A DNA stretch of 15,001 nt from a virus (IMGVR_UViG_2698536395_000029); one strand, 5' to 3'; shown: positions 1-13,220, counted from the stretch's first letter. The notes: a model not told the origin generated them from the sequence alone. A program made the numbers and translations.

Positions 1-165
1 ATGGCAAAGCCGATCATCACGCTCAATGGCCTAAAAATCGTCATTATGTTGGGAATGCTGGTCATTATTCTCTGCGGTATCCGTTTTGCCGCCGAGATCA
101 TCGTGCCGTTTATTCTCGCATTATTTATTGCTGTTATATATAACTTATTTCGCATAACACATTGA
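1..165 (+). pseudogene. tqsA: 5' fragment of an AI-2E family transporter gene (TqsA/YdgG-like), interrupted by the inserted element
   Basis: ATG at 1; the first ~45 codons ([45 protein letters not shown]) read like the N-terminal membrane helix of E. coli TqsA as I recall it. After codon 45 the frame enters AT-rich sequence (IYNLFRITH) and stops at 163-165, 54 aa instead of ~340. Identification is from memory, not a search. Confidence 0.5.
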
Positions 166-186
166 TTTAATTAAATAATTAACACC

Positions 187-211
187 GCAAAAAGTGCCAA
201 AAATCGCAAAA
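187..211. promoter_or_regulatory. Phased A-tracts (probable intrinsically bent DNA) in the left arm
   Basis: gcAAAAAgtgccAAAAAtcgcAAAAtg: A4-5 tracts recurring at roughly 10-bp spacing, as in att arms and IHF-bent regions. Confidence 0.4.
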
Positions 212-233
212 TGACTACACCAGTGACTACACC
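212..233. repeat. Tandem direct repeat TGACTACACC x2 (12-bp period); candidate integrase arm-type site
   Basis: Exact 10-mer at 212-221 and 224-233, about 80-100 bp inside the inferred left junction. Confidence 0.5.
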
Positions 234-250
234 GTTCGGTGCACTGTATG

Positions 251-276
251 AAACAACGTGGAACAAATAGACACAA
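251..276 (+). promoter_or_regulatory. Phased hexamer array AAACAA-N4-GAACAA-N4-ACACAA (10-bp period)
   Basis: Hexamers at 251-256, 261-266 and 271-276. The 15-mer AACAACGTGGAACAA (252-266) recurs exactly at 7715-7729. Confidence 0.5.
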
Positions 277-344
277 GAAATATACAGGCGGATCATCTTT
301 CCAGGGGGAAGCACACCAATTCATGAGGGGCGTTAATGTCGATA

Positions 345-356
345 TGGGGATCCCCA
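345..356. repeat. 12-bp perfect palindrome TGGGGATCCCCA
   Basis: Reads identically on both strands. Followed at 361-377 by the inverted repeat CCGGAA-T5-TTCCGG. Confidence 0.6.
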
Positions 357-499
357 CCTACCGGAATTTTTTTCCGGTTAAACGTTAATCAGGCTGGTGG
401 GCTTTACCTGTTCGGTAGGTGTTATGATTATCGTAATACCTTTCCCCCAATGGGGTAAAAGCATCAACCGTAACGAAAGTCGTTATGGTTGCCACTGAT

Positions 500-577
500 A
501 CCCCAAATTTGGGTATCACGAGTAAGCCCCAAAATCTGGGTGTTACTCTTACTACCCAAACTACGGGTAGTTTCCGT
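500..577. repeat. Three tandem ~26-bp units, each a small CCCAAA...GGGT palindrome, ending in a 9-bp stem (AAACTACGG / CCGTAGTTT)
   Basis: Units 500-525 (taccccaaatttgggtatcacgagta), 526-551 (agccccaaaatctgggtgttactctt) and 552-577 (actacccaaactacgggtagtttccg). A related motif cccccaatgggg lies at 445-456. Confidence 0.6.
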
Positions 578-589
578 AGTTTCATGGTC

Positions 590-609
590 GAGTTGCAGAT
601 CTGCAACTC
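590..609. repeat. 20-bp perfect palindrome GAGTTGCAGATCTGCAACTC
   Basis: Exact reverse-complement symmetry centred on AGATCT. Confidence 0.7.
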
Positions 610-863
610 CCCCATTAACCACAGGCGAATTTCCGCCTTCGGTCATTCCTTAATCATCTGCGTAATCATAATGATTATTCAGCAAGCGCAATTTTGCGCT
701 TTGCTTAAAGTTCAGCGAGTTACCGCGCCGACTTCCTCAAATTGAGGTTTCCGAAAATATCAGCGGGTTAGCGATTAAGCTGACCATTAATTAAACTGCG
801 AAAATGTCGTAGTTGTGAGGGGTGTAGCCAACCCATTTTTGGGCCGTCGGGAATATCAACCAG

Positions 864-1145
864 TTACCGCCGCAACCGCTCCGGCTTCTTCCAGTGGTAC
901 GTGATTTTCTCCTTCTCCCGATACAGTTCAACGCGGCGATTGTAGGCCAGCATTTCAAGAACGCGGATCCGTATGTCGCGCATATCCGCATCATTAAGCT
1001 GGATACCATCACGGCGCATCACCTCAGCAACAACACGCGCATAATTTTCGGCTGTCACGCTGTCCGGCTGCGTGGTCTGTTCGTCAGCCTGCTGGCTGAT
1101 TCCAGAGACGCGGCGGATTAATCGCAGTATTTCGGCTTCTGTCAT
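864..1145 (-). CDS. Hypothetical protein (93 aa), last gene of the packaging operon
   Basis: ATG at 1145 preceded by GAGGT; begins 14 nt after the TerL stop on the same strand. No family recognised. Confidence 0.5.
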   Translation of the reverse strand: MTEAEILRLIRRVSGISQQADEQTTQPDSVTAENYARVVAEVMRRDGIQLNDADMRDIRIRVLEMLAYNRRVELYREKEKITYHWKKPERLRR

Positions 1146-1158
1146 GCTGCTGACCTCA

Positions 1159-2820
1159 TTACACCCCGCTAAATTCTTCCAGTTTCTGGCGGTGGCTGTC
1201 GCTTATATCAAAAGCAAAATCCTCATGCTCTGCCTGGAATGTACCAAACGCCATCAGCGCCGCTACGCTCGGGTCTATCTTGTTCGGTGATTTTTTCTTG
1301 TTCGGCTTGATATTGGCGTTCGCGTCACTCTGCATCACGACGTTACTCATCGACCAGGACAACACCGGATCGCCACGATGCACAATCACCCTGCGGTTAA
1401 CAAAAACTTCGAACGATTTCGCCGCCGGACTGAATCTGAGGTAGGTTTGCGGGAACGGCTCCACCTCAAAACCAGCCCCCTGTAATTGCGTCCTGAGATG
1501 CGTGGCGTTCCACGTATCAAAGCCCACCAGCCTGATATTAAATTTCTCCGCATCCTGCATGATGTCATCTCTGATCCGGTCGTAATCAATGCAGTCACCT
1601 GGCGTTGTGCGTATCCAGCCCGCTTTAGCCCACTGGCGATAGACAGCGCGGTTTTTATTGGCGGGGTTCTGTAGCTGGAACTCCGGCAGATAATGACGGG
1701 AAACCAGCATGATATTTTTACCGACCGGAAAGGCATAGCACACGCTGGAAATATCGCTGGTTGATGATAAGTCCAGCCCCGCGTAACACTCCTGCCCGTG
1801 TAAATCTTCCTCCGTGAACGTTCCGGCACACTCAGCCCATGCGCCGTTACCCATCCACGGGGTAGCCCCCTGGCACCAGATATTAAATCGCTTTGTCATC
1901 ATCTCCACCCACTGCGACGGAATACCCCGCGCTTTCTGGATGGTTGAGGCCAGTTTTTCACGATCGACGGAAACATCAATATTAGGGTTCGCCTTTATCC
2001 ACATCGCCGGATCATCAACCTCGTTTTCGTCGTCCAGCTCGTAAATCAGTACAAAAATTGAATCGTTAACCTCTTCGCCGTCCAGGATCTGGCAGCAATA
2101 ATCATAGTGCTGTTTACAGGCTGAAACGACGTTGCTGCCTGATGTGGTAATGGCAAATAACAGCCCTTCGGGACGTGCGCCCATCCCCAGCTCAAGCGCG
2201 GAATAAACGCCGTTATCGGGGTGCAAGTGGTATTCGTCCACGATGGAAAGGCTTGGGTTTGTTCCCTCGATGGTTGCCGCTTTTGCTGCCAGCGGCTTTA
2301 ACAGGCTGTTGCTTTTCGGGTGTATCACCTTATGCGCCTGAATATTCACCCGCCTGCGTAACGGTCGGGATAAAAGGCACATCTGACGCGCATCATCAAA
2401 GACGATCCGCGCCTGGTCACGGCTCACCGCTGCGGTGTAGATATCCTGCTGACCGTTCTCCATAATCAGAAACCAGTTAGCCAGAATCGCGGCGGTCGTG
2501 GATTTCGCATTTTTGCGCGGCACTTCGATAAAGGCGCTCGTGTATTTGCGCCGTCCGGTGGCCTTAACCTTAAAGCCGAGGATGCACGCAAAGGCGAACT
2601 GCTGCCACGGCTCCAGCTCAATGGGTCTGCCACGCATCGGTCCTTTTACGTGCGGGCACACCCTGGAAAAGGCAATAAACCGCTCCACAACCTCACGATC
2701 GAACGTGTAAAGGGGGCTTTTAAGGTCCGAAAAGTACCGTTTAACGGCCTGTTTCAGCCGTTTACAGGCCGGAATTTTGCCCGTTTTTACGTCTTCTGCG
2801 TACTTATTCCAGGCGGTCAA
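1159..2820 (-). CDS. terL: Terminase large subunit (Terminase_1-like ATPase/nuclease)
   Basis: 553 aa; Walker-A-like PRKNAKST near residue 100; size and position after TerS. Start per ORF track is TTG at 2820, overlapping the TerS stop; next in-frame ATG is ~60 codons in, so the exact start is uncertain. Confidence 0.9.
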   Translation of the reverse strand: MTAWNKYAEDVKTGKIPACKRLKQAVKRYFSDLKSPLYTFDREVVERFIAFSRVCPHVKGPMRGRPIELEPWQQFAFACILGFKVKATGRRKYTSAFIEVPRKNAKSTTAAILANWFLIMENGQQDIYTAAVSRDQARIVFDDARQMCLLSRPLRRRVNIQAHKVIHPKSNSLLKPLAAKAATIEGTNPSLSIVDEYHLHPDNGVYSALELGMGARPEGLLFAITTSGSNVVSACKQHYDYCCQILDGEEVNDSIFVLIYELDDENEVDDPAMWIKANPNIDVSVDREKLASTIQKARGIPSQWVEMMTKRFNIWCQGATPWMGNGAWAECAGTFTEEDLHGQECYAGLDLSSTSDISSVCYAFPVGKNIMLVSRHYLPEFQLQNPANKNRAVYRQWAKAGWIRTTPGDCIDYDRIRDDIMQDAEKFNIRLVGFDTWNATHLRTQLQGAGFEVEPFPQTYLRFSPAAKSFEVFVNRRVIVHRGDPVLSWSMSNVVMQSDANANIKPNKKKSPNKIDPSVAALMAFGTFQAEHEDFAFDISDSHRQKLEEFSGV

Positions 2821-3160: not shown

Positions 3161-3448
3161 GCTTATTTTTCGTCAGATTATTTTTCAAAAAATTCCCGTG
3201 CATAAAAATTTGAGGAGGCGTTCGGTGCCCGGCGGGGTCGGGTTTGTCCTGAAAACGCCCCCCACCCCGTCATACAGCCTCATCAGCGATTGCGGAAACA
3301 TTCCATAACCTCGCGGTCACGGTCGGTTAATCGCTTCGCTGTGATGCGTTCTGCGCGTCCTGACGCTTTATCTTTATGCCCTGTTTCCTGTGTCTTCCAT
3401 GCGTCACGCTGCCTTATAAGTCCACGGATAAGGCGGTTTTGTTCCCGC
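3161..3448. other. Candidate cos (packaging) region between HNH and TerS
   Basis: 288-bp non-coding gap in the HNH-gap-TerS-TerL arrangement where HK97-like cos phages carry cos. Contains the G/C-rich tract ggtgcccggcggggtcgggtttgtcc (~3225-3250). Position-based inference only. Confidence 0.35.
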
Positions 3449-7713: not shown

Positions 7714-7739
7714 GAACAACGTGGAACAACCACGAACAA
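7714..7739 (+). promoter_or_regulatory. Phased hexamer array GAACAA-cgtg-GAACAA-ccac-GAACAA (10-bp period) upstream of the head operon
   Basis: Hexamers at 7714-7719, 7724-7729 and 7734-7739, about 215-240 bp upstream of the capsid ATG. Confidence 0.5.
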
Positions 7740-7750
7740 ATAATTTACAA

Positions 7751-7779
7751 AAAATGACAAAAAGCCGGATTGCTCCGGC
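7751..7779 (-). terminator. Rho-independent terminator after the 74-aa orphan gene
   Basis: Minus strand GCCGGA-gcaa-TCCGGC followed by TTTTTGTCATTTT; 12 nt after the stop at 7791. Confidence 0.6.
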
Positions 7780-7790
7780 TGTATGCGTGC

Positions 7791-9109: not shown

Positions 9110-9158
9110 ATTTATTTTTACCCCCTCGTTTAAAAAGTTTTGAGTTGTGCCTCCCCTT

Positions 9159-9382
9159 GTCTACCTTATCTACCTTAGTGGCCCTCATACCAGTAATGGC
9201 GCGGCTTTCAGCTGGGTAGAGTGCTTTTATCCACTATCTACCCCGTGTCTACCTCCCTGTCTGATTCAGGTAAAATCAGGTAGAGAGGGTAGATAGTGGG
9301 TAGACAGTAAAAAAAGGCTATCTACCTAACTTAATGCACTGAATTAAATGTATTTTTCTTTACTCAGGTAGACAGGGTAGAC
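9159..9382. repeat. Iteron-type replication origin
   Basis: At least 11 copies of the 7-mer GGTAGA[C/T/G] or its complement in both orientations (9159, 9168, 9215, 9236, 9247, 9279, 9288, 9299, 9320, 9367, 9376), often at 9-11 bp spacing, flanking an AT-rich stretch at 9330-9366. Lies directly downstream of the primase stop. Confidence 0.75.
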
Positions 9383-9397
9383 AGCAATTACAAAAAA

Positions 9398-11152
9398 TTA
9401 TAAAAACGCGTCGCACTCGTCTGTTGTTATTGCGTTAGTCTGCGTTACTCCCTTAACTTTCCGCGTAATATATTCATGTCCGTAAACTTTCGCGGCTGGC
9501 TTCATAGCCTTGCCAAAGTCATTTACGTTTAGCGGTTTGCTCCTGCCTGCGTACGCCATAAACGCCAGATAGACGCGGTAAAGGCTGTTTCTGGTCGTGT
9601 ACTTCACTGAATCGCCACCGCCGCCCATCATCAGGCCGCGTGCTTCCTCCAGAAAATTCAGGAACTGGCAAAACTCAATAACCGGATCCGTCTGTTGCTT
9701 TATTGCCAGAGCTTCATCACCGTCACGCTGTTCCAGTAGTAAAGCCCGTGCCTTCTCAGGGTCGGTAAAGTTCGCCAGCAATCGGCGGATAATGACAGGG
9801 ATTTCAGCCGCGATCTTTTCCGGTAGCTCCCTGTCTTTTTCGGCCTCACTGACGATATTGTCGAAACGGAAAATCACGCGACGACGTGCCACACCTCCGG
9901 CCCGTTCGGTGAATATCATCGGGTTATTGTTGGTCGCCAGCACCACCGCCCTGATTACAGCCGTGAAACGCTTTTCGTATTTCGGGTTAATTTCCACGGG
10001 GTCACCGCCCGTGATTTTCTTGATGCCCGTTCCTTCGCCTGTATATTTCGGCTGGTCAGCCAGGACGATAAGACGACTCCCGACAACCTGCGCACGTCCA
10101 CCAGCATCATCAAGCGATGTCATTTCAGCGCTTACCGTGTTCTGTTTCCCTGCCAGAAGGCTGGCTATGTGCGTGAATGTACTTTTACCGCTCCCGCCGT
10201 CTCCGGTGGCCTCAATAAACATCTGCCAGTCGTACCGGTTCGCCATAATCATGTACAGCGCGGCACATATACGCATCATCTTGCGCGGGTCTTTTCCGGC
10301 TGCGTGCTCAAGCCATTTATGAAAGTTTGGCGCGTTATCGCGGATGTTCTCCCCTGGTGCTGGTGGCGTGTACTCAATGCCGTTGTGCGTGGTGATCCAG
10401 TTCTCCGGCGTGTGCGGGGAAAATTCCCCCGTTTTCAGGTCAAGCGCACCATTGGCGAACGGCAGCAAATCGCCGGACGGCTCGCCCATTGGTTCGGCAA
10501 TAACTTTTAACGCTTCCACGGCGTTATTGATTACGCGCTTGCTGAAAGTGGCCCTGTGCTCTGAATAGATCGCCACCATTTCGCGGCTAAGTTCCATTGT
10601 GCTGACCGGACACCATACCCCGCCGCGCCATACGTGAACGATTTCACTTTCAGGATGTACGCAAACGCCATCAAAGCGATCGGCAAGCAGCTGCGCGCGC
10701 TCACTGTCCGCCATCTGCGAAAGTTGCGCCTTTTGCTTTACCGGAAGCTCAATGACCAGACCATCAGAAAGATTCTGGCGCTCACGAGCCAGATATTCGC
10801 GCCAGTTCTCCACCTTCTGACCGTGCATACCATCAGGGTAAAAATTTGCATCCTGTACGCCTGCCGCCGCCAGCTTCTGACCAATCGCCTTTATCATTAC
10901 TGGCGCAAGATATCCGGCCCTGAATATGCGCACGGATTTTCTGCCTTCCGGCACAATTTGCAGCTTATCCAGTTCGGATAACTGCTGCTCCCCAAGCCAC
11001 ACAGGAGGCTCATTATCTCCGGCCATACGCGCGTCATGTTCCTGCCATTGTTTTGCGTGTGACCAGGCATCACTACCCGCAAAAATAATGACTTCTGTTT
11101 CTTTGTGTTTTATGCCGCGTGACTGCTGTTTTACGTTCGGTGCCAGTTTCAT
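9398..11152 (-). CDS. Primase/helicase replication protein (P4-alpha-like; D5-type NTPase C-terminal domain)
   Basis: 584 aa; Walker A GDGGSGKST at ~residue 318 with the surrounding D5/P4-family helicase context; N-terminal primase-like region; iteron origin immediately downstream. Confidence 0.85.
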   Translation of the reverse strand: MKLAPNVKQQSRGIKHKETEVIIFAGSDAWSHAKQWQEHDARMAGDNEPPVWLGEQQLSELDKLQIVPEGRKSVRIFRAGYLAPVMIKAIGQKLAAAGVQDANFYPDGMHGQKVENWREYLARERQNLSDGLVIELPVKQKAQLSQMADSERAQLLADRFDGVCVHPESEIVHVWRGGVWCPVSTMELSREMVAIYSEHRATFSKRVINNAVEALKVIAEPMGEPSGDLLPFANGALDLKTGEFSPHTPENWITTHNGIEYTPPAPGENIRDNAPNFHKWLEHAAGKDPRKMMRICAALYMIMANRYDWQMFIEATGDGGSGKSTFTHIASLLAGKQNTVSAEMTSLDDAGGRAQVVGSRLIVLADQPKYTGEGTGIKKITGGDPVEINPKYEKRFTAVIRAVVLATNNNPMIFTERAGGVARRRVIFRFDNIVSEAEKDRELPEKIAAEIPVIIRRLLANFTDPEKARALLLEQRDGDEALAIKQQTDPVIEFCQFLNFLEEARGLMMGGGGDSVKYTTRNSLYRVYLAFMAYAGRSKPLNVNDFGKAMKPAAKVYGHEYITRKVKGVTQTNAITTDECDAFL

Positions 11153-11913: not shown

Positions 11914-12145
11914 AACCACCCCCATTTTCACAATCAGCAATCAGGATGGCTTTAGCCTCATTCAGCGCCATATCAGCACTAAGTTGCATAACCGCCAGCG
12001 AATGAGGAACGAAAGCCCCGGCATATTCTGTTTCACTGGTGTCGTGCTTATGCGCCCTGTCAGCAATAACAGAAATATCAATCAGCGCATGCATTAGCGT
12101 TATGATGGCTTCGGCGGCTGCGTCCGGACGGGTGTTATTGCACAT
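11906..12145 (-). CDS. Hypothetical protein (79 aa)
   Basis: ATG at 12145 preceded by CAGGAGG; overlaps the stop of the 68-aa gene. Confidence 0.5.
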   Translation of the reverse strand: MCNNTRPDAAAEAIITLMHALIDISVIADRAHKHDTSETEYAGAFVPHSLAVMQLSADMALNEAKAILIADCENGGGYA

Positions 12146-12341
12146 GGCACACCTCCTGACGAATACGGGCAGCGAATACCATCACGCAGCCAGCCGGAGA
12201 TTGCTGGCGTGCTTCCTGTTCGCTGGTGGCCTCAATGGTAATCACGCGCGGTTGTGCCGTGCTCAGGGCGATAAAACGCCAGATGTATTTATTCAGGTCG
12301 TGCGAGTCCCGCCCTTGCGGGTGTGTGGTATGATTTCTCAT
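12135..12341 (-). CDS. Hypothetical protein (68 aa); first gene of the replication operon, possibly Icd-like
   Basis: ATG at 12341 with GAGGT SD. It is the only plausible part of the 342-aa track ORF; the upstream 274 codons are Cys/Arg/Ser-rich antisense of real plus-strand genes. The motif YIWRFIALS...EARQQ...VFAAR vaguely recalls Icd-like proteins (low confidence). Confidence 0.5.
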   Translation of the reverse strand: MRNHTTHPQGRDSHDLNKYIWRFIALSTAQPRVITIEATSEQEARQQSPAGCVMVFAARIRQEVCHVQ

Positions 12342-12379
12342 AGCTACCTCGATACTTTCGCTATCGTTGGTGGTTAGAA

Positions 12380-12410
12380 GCCCTGCGAGTGGTAACGACA
12401 CTTGCGGGGC
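12380..12410. promoter_or_regulatory. Imperfect 12-bp inverted repeat in the divergent control region
   Basis: GCCCTGCGAGTG-gtaacga-CACTTGCGGGGC (10/12 complementary at DNA level); lies in the 5' leader of the minus-strand operon. Confidence 0.45.
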
Positions 12411-12438
12411 TTTGCATTTATGCACCTTGATAATCTCA

Positions 12439-12474
12439 AGGTGTGGCCCACTATATGCTTTAGGTGTGGCCCAC
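12439..12474. promoter_or_regulatory. Two exact 13-bp direct repeats AGGTGTGGCCCAC (candidate operator) overlapping a sigma70-like promoter
   Basis: Copies at 12439-12451 and 12462-12474, 23 bp apart; TTGATA at 12427-12432 and TATACT at 12506-12511 are plausible promoter hexamers upstream of the gene starting at 12541. Confidence 0.5.
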
Positions 12475-12540
12475 GTCAAGGGTTTTATTTGTGCTTTTTC
12501 TGTGTATACTGTCCCCCACCAATCCAACAGAGGAATAGAA

Positions 12541-12720
12541 ATGGCAACGGGTACAACAAACGCAAAATCACAAGCTCTAAAGGCTCGTGTACCACACGAA
12601 ATAGTAAACGCCATGGAATCAGTGAAAGAATCAGGCGAAAGCACATCACAATTCATCATTGCGTCAATGCAAGGCGAGATCAAACGCCGCCAGCGCCGCA
12701 AGGCCAAAGAATCAGAATAA
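12541..12720 (+). CDS. Small DNA-binding protein, probable ribbon-helix-helix fold (59 aa)
   Basis: ATG at 12541 with AGAGGAA SD. The pattern LKARVPHEIVNAMESVKESGESTSQFIIASMQGEI (strand, helix, G-S/T turn, helix) and a basic tail fit CopG/Arc-type RHH proteins. Confidence 0.55.
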   Translation: MATGTTNAKSQALKARVPHEIVNAMESVKESGESTSQFIIASMQGEIKRRQRRKAKESE

Positions 12721-12762
12721 TCACTATCAGCGCCGTGGTGTGAGGTATTACGGCGCATTGCT

Positions 12763-12951
12763 ATGCAGGACAACACAATGACCGATAAAGAATTGACCAA
12801 AACATTATCACCGGCACGGAAAAGACGGCGCAGAAAGATAGAACATGAATCAGAAAGATTCGCGCCATGTGCTTTTGCCCTTGAGCAATTCCTTAAAGAG
12901 TACAGGGAAAAGCGCTCATTGCAGGTATGGCAACGAACTGAACCAGACTGA
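12763..12951 (+). CDS. Hypothetical basic protein (62 aa; start may be 12778)
   Basis: ORF 43 nt downstream of the RHH gene on the same strand, with a poly-basic stretch ARKRRRRK; the SD is weak, so coding status is uncertain. Confidence 0.4.
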   Translation: MQDNTMTDKELTKTLSPARKRRRRKIEHESERFAPCAFALEQFLKEYREKRSLQVWQRTEPD

Positions 12952-13036
12952 TTGCATTGCCCACCAGCCTGATAGCGGCTATCATCCCCGTGCTTATGTT
13001 TGGGATCACACACACAAACGGCGCAGCGGGTTATCT

Positions 13037-13064
13037 GTTCAGAAAGGCGGCTCCATTTCGGGGC
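13037..13064 (+). terminator. Rho-independent terminator ending the plus-strand RHH operon
   Basis: GCGGCTCC-atttc-GGGGCCGC (8-bp stem with one G-U pair) followed by T7. Confidence 0.75.
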
Positions 13065-13220
13065 CGCTTTTTTTATGCCTGAAAAACCCCAATTTTGTGG
13101 TTTTCCAGTCTCACCAGGGCGAACGAATCCCCGCCCACGTTCTGGCGTATATTCAATCTTCATGGTTATAGCTCTGTGTTCAGATGATTGATGTGTGGCG
13201 GCTGTGTGCCGCCAGCGTGA

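Follow-up and report, generated by a model that had tools for sequence, protein, structure and literature searches.

The window analysed here is a stretch of 15,001 nucleotides of viral DNA (IMGVR_UViG_2698536395_000029) and holds a capsid-forming PICI (cf-PICI) of E. coli, for which the host gene tqsA is the site of insertion. The islands in E. coli FORC_069 and AREA_504 are 100% identical to the window sequence. All island genes are on the minus strand, in the order 93-aa gene (864-1145), terL, P27-family terS, hnh, head connectors, portal, protease, HK97-type capsid, perC, ssb, primase and tyrosine integrase. This is the gene order reported for capsid-forming PICIs of Proteobacteria (bioRxiv 10.1101/2022.09.08.507074). 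The broken tqsA gene is transcribed on the plus strand, directed into the island, and its remainder picks up beyond the integrase end in the 100%-identical genome. A non-coding trailer, 340-863, lies between the 93-aa gene, the last of the helper-induced operon, and the att arm with tqsA (Table 1). No published description of 340-863 was found, none of the papers searched has any of four diagnostic strings from the region, and the trailer is undiscussed in the PICI literature that was examined.

Table 1. Features of the trailer and of the sites discussed with it (window coordinates)
Feature	Position	Strand	Details
tqsA 5' fragment (AI-2 transporter)	1-150	+	Broken by the island; annotated as partial 'pheromone autoinducer 2 transporter' in the 100%-identical genome
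Integrase-specific att arm	156-339		Has a block that recurs toward the opposite end of the island
TGACTACACC, twice	212-221, 224-233		In att arm
ACAACGTGGAACAA	253-266		In att arm
Block A	340-493		Most widespread non-coding module; from comparison of loci
Perfect 12-bp palindrome TGGGGATCCCCA	345-356		In block A; read from sequence
Long-range stem	355-363/413-421		In block A
Hairpin CCGGAA-TTTTT-TTCCGG	361-377		In block A; read from sequence
Chi site	393-400		In block A
CCCCAATGGGG	445-455		In block A
Hairpin	466-490		In block A
86-aa ORF across the B-core	485-745	+	Weak coding candidate; open frame
B-core	497-609		Sharply bounded 112-bp module of four adjacent hairpins; from fold and comparison
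B-core hairpins H1, H2, H3, H4	496-518, 520-548, 558-582, 590-609
Three CCCAAA-N-GGGT units	502-514, 528-541, 555-568		Read from sequence
Perfect 20-bp palindrome GAGTTGCAGATCTGCAACTC	590-609		Read from sequence
Hairpin GGCG-AATTTC-CGCC, then TTCGG	624-637		Position kept, sequence not
A+T-rich palindrome CTGCGTAATCAT-A-ATGATTATTCAG	658-682		Inverted repeat I9
Inverted repeat AGCAAGCGCAA-TT-TTGCGCTTTGCT	681-704		One extra T; read from sequence
Hairpin-plus-box unit 1	681-725		Hairpin 681-704, box 708-725 (AAGTTCAGCGAGTTACCG)
Hairpin-plus-box unit 2	729-773		Hairpin CCTCAA-A-TTGAGG 735-747, box 756-773 (AATATCAGCGGGTTAGCG)
Gene-adjacent unit	826-869		Hairpin ACCCATTTTTGGG 831-843, box 852-869
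93-aa gene (phrog_1561)	864-1145	-	Last of island operon; PHROG E = 1.5e-55
Candidate cos	3161-3282	-	G+C-rich 122-bp spacer between a small post-hnh ORF and terS
Candidate replication origin	9150-9390		Inverted TCTACC/GGTAGA iterons downstream of primase gene; fold z = -5.2
Chi sites	393, 1524, 4302, 4747, 5751, 6246, 8323, 8464, 8798, 10098, 10359, 12222, 12961, 14122

The chain of about a dozen small palindromes at this end of the E. coli cf-PICI is real. The initial annotation had claimed five symmetric features, and all five are read from the sequence where it placed them. It had also described three tandem units of about 26 bp; the three units stand, the period does not, since GGGT returns every 27 nt. 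The pattern CCCAAA-N(2-7)-GGGT has 5 matches in the whole window, where shuffles predict 0.23. These are the three units on the plus strand, unit 1 also on the minus strand, and a fourth, inverted copy, and they are confined to 500-568 and 831-843. Tandem Repeats Finder did not call the three units as a tandem repeat because the units have only about 10 nt each in common. The 340-710 segment folds at -147.6 kcal/mol on the plus strand (z = -10.4) and at -149.4 kcal/mol on the minus strand (z = -9.75), with 0 of 100 shuffles as good on either strand. In a sliding fold scan of 199 windows, with a mean z of -0.57 and sd of 1.63, the most extreme are 451-600 (z = -9.7) and 526-675 (z = -7.8). The region is the strongest structural outlier of the 15-kb window, and these z values and scan ranks bear out the claim that its density of symmetric sites is real and far above chance. 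The third-strongest fold outlier, 12301-12525 (z = -5.9), lies within a 342-aa ORF (12135-13163); the genes with which this ORF overlaps have an Icd-like annotation in the identical genome.

The loci compared were 80 IMG/VR loci anchored on the 93-aa gene, 12 further loci anchored on a diverged 93-aa homologue, and 69 metagenome contigs from a B-specific pattern, about 60 of which are true copies; a contig scan with the 93-aa protein gave one useful locus. The non-coding DNA at 150-863 is a mosaic of four modules, namely an att arm, block A, the B-core and hairpin-plus-box units. Each border of the mosaic (340, 493/494 and 608/609) coincides with a hairpin end or is a few bases from one. The att arm has a 32-nt block plus ACAACGTG(G/A)AACAA that recurs, near-identical, toward the opposite end of the island; only islands with a related att side share this block. 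Sequence sharing starts exactly at 340 in several PICIs, and islands with other integrases share 340 onward only. Because the att-specific sequence ends at 339, the symmetric region is not att, in agreement with the earlier statement that its symmetric sites are not explained by att function alone. An exact 15-nt repeat, AACAACGTGGAACAA, occurs in the att arm (252-266) and upstream of the capsid operon (7715-7729), with a near copy at the other island end, and may be a regulator or integrase site. Block A is present in about 44 of the 80 IMG/VR PICI loci at 82-94% identity. Variants of it have 8-11 bp inserted directly 3' of the 12-bp palindrome, and the stretch of about 405-445 exists in two alternative forms. 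An alifold of block A gave small hairpins only, with compensatory change almost nil.

The B-core, with its three CCCAAA..GGGT units and the 20-bp palindrome, has a DNA fold z of -6.7. It is found in 708 of 5426 complete E. coli genomes (about 13%), mostly as one copy per genome. Its orientation is constant and its distance to the 3' end of the 93-aa gene is 47-450 bp. The edges are fixed within a few bases, with at least three unrelated flanks on the left and at least five on the right. Most contexts have copies at 95-100% identity, one lineage at 74-77%. Hairpins H3 and H4 are invariant across 24 variants, the 74%-identical lineage included, and are uninformative on pairing because neither ever varies. 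In the B-core pair count 96% of cells are paired, but double changes are seen in only 2 pairs. An A-T to C-G double change is seen in H1 of L152, with L102 as a one-sided intermediate. The H1 loop varies freely (CAAATTT, TTTATTT, TGTATTT), and in L119 an unrelated hairpin, CCTCA-CAT-TGAGG, is in place of H1. H2 is disrupted in the L086 lineage. In L086 the central dyad of the 20-bp palindrome survives through a G-C to A-T double change, although the RNA fold has a loop there. The double changes of L086, in H1 and in H4, are at central positions, which an RNA loop would leave unconstrained. These compensated changes point to symmetry at the DNA level, or to templated palindrome correction, and not to RNA selection. 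Covariation across homologous islands, the check proposed in the initial annotation, gave pairing-preserving double changes in H1, almost none in block A, and invariance in H3 and H4. Because pairing is kept yet centres are symmetric and there is no G-U bias, it is dyad symmetry as such that is maintained, whether in RNA, in single-stranded DNA, in the duplex or by templated correction.

Two direct copies of the B-core, 434 bp apart, occur in L102 (4526-5082) and L124 (803-1359). Between them are three copies of GCGGGTTA, an A+T-rich stretch and three copies of TAACCCGC, and judged by its sequence this cassette looks like an origin type. The E. coli 'plasmid' record NZ_CP148328.1 (10,790 bp) carries the B-core and could be a circular PICI that had excised and was taken for a plasmid in the assembly.

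The initial annotation found no convincing ORF in the region, and the three small ORFs present have no Pfam or PHROG match and are not annotated as CDS in the 100%-identical RefSeq genome. The frame of a minus-strand ORF called by PGAP in some genomes is interrupted by stops in L086 and L087. It is very unlikely that the B-core codes for a small plus-strand protein, ORF 485-745. The frame is open across the B-core in all variants and a 9-nt indel is in frame. The 27-nt GGGT period corresponds to 9 codons, and read in this way the three units would be a 9-residue peptide repeat (TPNLGIT, KPQNLGVT, TTQTTGSF). The dN/dS ratio of about 0.3-0.4, compared with about 1 in the other two frames, comes from just about 20 substitutions and is not significant. 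The N- and C-termini, however, are unrelated among variants, the start codon is absent in some, and L119 swaps half of the core. A clear ribosome-binding site is lacking, the RefSeq annotation is blank on the plus strand there, and the most variable residues fall on the loop of the H1 hairpin.

To the right of the B-core the next hairpin (624-637) occurs in five unrelated, self-complementary versions, and other islands have GTGCA/TGCAC, ACGCAA/TTGCGT or CGTAAA/TTTGCG at this site. The stretch of about 620-869 consists of units of about 48 bp, each with a variable hairpin and then a conserved box, AATATCAGCGAGTTACCG. Unit 1 has the direct-repeat families D1 and D2 at a spacing of 48 bp and belongs to a family of units found across loci. 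In the gene-adjacent unit the hairpin is the fourth CCCAAA..GGGT unit, inverted, and the box overlaps the stop codon of the 93-aa gene. The unit boxes copy the last codons and the stop of this gene, and the number of units differs between islands. Among 28 clusters of box-associated units the stems are wholly different and still complementary, and a G-U strand-bias test on the units gave no bias. A resemblance to a Fur box at 666-680 was not significant. Likewise GCGGGTTA was considered as an iteron in the box and rejected, having only a mild excess in the window and differing from the island's own iterons.

The gene that borders the trailer had been taken for the last packaging gene. It is not a recognised packaging gene but the gene for the 93-aa phrog_1561 protein, which follows terL. 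It is the constant neighbour of the non-coding modules, and follows terL, terS or perC depending on the island. The protein has 965 homologues, and among the 120 matches listed all are 'hypothetical' or 'prophage protein'. It has no Pfam match and no PDB sequence match, and its predicted model has three helices (pLDDT 68) with no significant fold match. A role as a DNA binder thus has no support from the family, PDB or fold searches. A weak terminator-like hairpin lies across the 93-aa stop codon (878-861, minus strand).

E. coli PICIs with different integrase, replication and packaging genes carry shuffled sets of these modules, in every case directly after the 93-aa gene and before att or convergent cargo genes. 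The PICIs that bear them include islands with capsid, decoration and TerS genes, islands with RepA-type instead of primase-type replication, islands at other integration sites, and satellites embedded in prophages. Neither block A nor block B is essential, as many related islands lack the one and many the other. For the 350 nt beyond the 3' end of the 93-aa gene, about 19 of 23 distinct variants have a fold z of about -3 to -10.7, and some of these variants have no sequence in common with the window. Two of the 23 have z near 0, among them L053, in which a 486-aa ORF converges on the 93-aa gene and occupies most of the stretch. Cargo genes, in the islands that have them, are convergent with the 93-aa gene, and the hairpins separate the two. 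For example, in L086 (1601-2362), a PICI embedded in the late region of a lambda-like prophage, an abortive-infection (Abi)-family gene converges on the 93-aa gene and a diverged B-core lies between them. A Klebsiella cf-PICI record has the homologous last gene, then two sequences read as putative canonical intrinsic terminators, then int.

The initial annotation suggested that 340-710 could be a packaging-recognition region for TerS. In favour are its lack of coding sequence, its many repeats and dyads, its location about 450-820 bp past the end of terL (1159) with the 93-aa gene between, and the fact that the two cf-PICI preprints leave the position of cos unstated. The reading of 340-710 as a cos or pac region for the island TerS is nevertheless highly improbable. 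Blocks A and B are also found in PICIs that have a different TerS and no TerL, so the blocks do not follow a cognate terminase. They occur too in PICIs that have a lambda-type cosN and a different TerS, in which the exact 12-nt lambda cosN, GGGCGGCGACCT, is just upstream of terS. One of the latter, the O157 PICI L003, shares block A and has an exact lambda cosN adjoining terS, outside the shared blocks. This O157:H7 island has two exact cosN, inverted, flanking terS at 9919-9930 (+) and 10786-10797 (-). In the window, a search for GGGCGGCGACCT with at most 2 mismatches gave a single match, which lies within the primase gene. Many related PICIs lack block A and many lack block B, those without block A including many islands that carry terL, and a blastn search of the region against 50,697 phage records gave no match.

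In HK97-type systems cos is located between hnh and terS. The 340-710 region is not in this position but beyond terL and the 93-aa gene, and it is very probably not cos. A G+C-rich spacer does occupy the hnh-terS position. LR881103.1 (vB_KppS-Ant), a linear, virion-derived 16.5-kb record described as an 'induced prophage' and plainly a cf-PICI, ends at a position that aligns with window 3246 and begins 22 nt before terS. It is without about 80 nt that are present before terS in the window. The cf-PICI cos is likely at about 3161-3282, upstream of terS; we infer this placement because the preprints do not state it. The known cos sites (lambda cosQ-cosN-cosB, Rpp-type and HK97-type) resemble the hairpin region in being non-coding, with dyads and repeats, and near terminase genes. 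They differ in that known cos sites are just upstream of terS or, in Rpp-type PICIs, of rpp (PMC9026076), and are tied to terminase type, whereas the hairpin region is across terL, common to terminase types, without cosN and often absent.

A centromere-like site had also been proposed. No partition genes are annotated in the island, and the dozen or so different palindromes contain no iterated site. The palindromes of 340-710 are likewise unlike the iterons of an origin, being all different from each other, and the replication origin is probably at 9150-9390, as suggested by its iterons. The initial annotation also proposed a structured non-coding RNA. Hairpins that are retained, or exchanged for others, favour one; the lack of an Rfam match, of promoter and terminator signals and of strand bias argues against it. 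A scan of Rfam 15 (E up to 1, window 1-1500, both strands) gave no match, and a search for tRNA and tmRNA with ARAGORN gave none. The promoter and terminator scan showed no excess, with 1 terminator-like site at 100-1200 where 1.2 are expected. Within 340-710 there are none, and no hairpin has a U-tract 3' of it on either strand. A putative intrinsic terminator, identified by eye, is present elsewhere in the island after perC and before the capsid operon (7763-7790, minus strand), with AGCCGGAGCAATCCGGCT followed by a T-run; this candidate suggests that the island uses U-tract terminators elsewhere. A blastn search against 72,556 plasmids matched only 6 E. coli records, by size and context apparently PICIs or misassigned chromosomal DNA, and a plasmid oriT mimic has no support.

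Several known systems share some of these properties. REP elements have a proposed role in stabilising upstream mRNA and punctuating transcription, and such a role is suggested for the PICI modules as well. Like REP/BIME sequences, the PICI modules are short palindromes with G+C stems, stacked in non-coding DNA between convergent transcription units, and fold equally on either strand. However, they have no sequence similarity to REP and are found only in PICIs, at a median of 1 place per genome and at most 6, whereas REP sequences are dispersed in hundreds. The PICI modules are also longer and composite, and the B-core is kept in sequence as well as in structure. The putative terminators of the Klebsiella record LR881103.1 are in the same position, after the 93-aa homologue and before att and int, but the E. 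coli hairpins are without U-tracts. Lambda nut sites consist of boxA plus the boxB hairpin. The hairpin-plus-box units are reminiscent of these, with a conserved box and a few nt later a short G+C stem whose A-rich loop varies by element. The PICI units, however, are at the end of an operon and not at its start, their box is unlike boxA, and they are tandem with no strand bias, so this is a resemblance only.

With the anatomy, the modularity, the fixed position and orientation and a hairpin density that is independent of sequence described, and with the att, origin and likely the cos signals elsewhere, the reading that we tentatively favour is that 340-863 separates the late operon from incoming transcription as a two-way hairpin buffer or 3' trailer. 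It is favoured because cargo genes converge on the region, the tqsA promoter points into it and the Klebsiella relative has terminator-like sequences there; the equally good folding of both strands fits a two-way role. The trailer would be assembled from interchangeable hairpin modules (block A, B-core and hairpin-plus-box units), and the stacked stem-loops would act on transcripts that arrive from both directions. They could set the 3' end of the late operon mRNA and shield it, and could hinder transcription, whether convergent or read-in, that comes from tqsA or cargo genes. In this role they would be closer to extragenic palindromes between convergent genes than to classical U-tract terminators. 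Transcription of the region and an action of the hairpins as RNA are both our inference. The position downstream of the 93-aa gene holds whichever packaging module precedes, and hairpins are replaced by hairpins, as seen in the five right-hand stems, in H1 of L119 and in the 28 unit clusters. The double change in H1 of L152, which preserves pairing, also counts in its favour. Against this reading are the absence of U-tracts and of a terminator excess, the conservation of the B-core sequence, the several palindromes that are perfect through the centre, an invariance of H3 and H4 that exceeds what structure alone requires, the broken H2 of the L086 lineage, and the many related islands without block A or block B.

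A rival reading, which we consider unlikely, is that the palindromes, the B-core above all, are binding sites in duplex DNA for an island or host protein. The invariant B-core dyads AAACTAC..GTAGTTT and GAGTTGCA-N4-TGCAACTC and the CCCAAA..GGGT units at 27-bp spacing would be bound by the 93-aa protein, AlpA, another regulator or a nucleoid protein, and a complex would be nucleated near att. Perfect centres, symmetric double changes at central positions, the constant sequence of H3 and H4 in all variants and the lack of strand bias are consistent with this, as are the strict tie of the B-core, in fixed orientation, to the 93-aa gene and the occurrence of CCCAAA-N-GGGT in this region only within the whole window. 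However, about a dozen different palindromes cannot all serve one protein, and the spacer of unit 1 and all of H2 vary or break in other lineages. The 93-aa protein has no DNA-binding family or fold, the motifs are not repeated near promoters elsewhere in the island, and the module is missing from about half of the related islands. In a further reading the region would have no dedicated function and would consist of recombination scars stacked just past the last gene, at the point where cargo swaps. Illegitimate or homologous exchanges would have left the scars, and template switching would create and perfect the palindromes. The sharp mosaic borders at or near hairpin ends argue for this, together with the unit boxes that copy the end of the 93-aa gene in varying number, the dispensability of the modules, and the cassette inserted between two B copies in L102 and L124. 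It is again an unlikely explanation, since the B-core is 95-100% identical amid unrelated flanks and is present in 708 genomes, and hairpin density recurs in unrelated sequences at the same position, which is unexpected unless a mutational process generates hairpins.

It has also been considered that the B-core is a discrete cis element peculiar to enterobacterial PICIs, either a hairpin-based site for recombination and cargo insertion or a DNA or RNA decoy for a helper-phage or host factor. The best lead for this reading is the duplication of B copies around a cassette with iterons and an A+T-rich stretch, and we regard the reading as distinctly unlikely. If true, the B-core would be a new satellite module, shuffled independently of the integration, replication and packaging modules. 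If it is a site recognised by a protein or recombinase, it would provide a new handle on the acquisition of cargo by satellites.

PICIs have been dissected by gene and their non-coding ends have been ignored. E. coli PICIs of several packaging types have in common a modular, hairpin-dense trailer, and this is where cargo such as defence genes inserts. If the hairpins of the favoured two-way buffer insulate the late operon, this would explain the tolerance of insertion in active genes such as tqsA and of swaps of convergent cargo. For the packaging site of cf-PICIs, the analysis indicates that the place to look is upstream of terS and not in the hairpin region.

The island is also rich in exact Chi sites (GCTGGTGG). 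There are 14 in 15 kb, 6 on the plus strand and 8 on the minus strand, compared with 0.43 expected from shuffles. Related islands have about 1 per kb, compared with 0.13-0.6 per kb in the flanking chromosome, and the 6 sites of the Klebsiella cf-PICI record are all on the same strand. This excess suggests that satellite DNA is protected from RecBCD.
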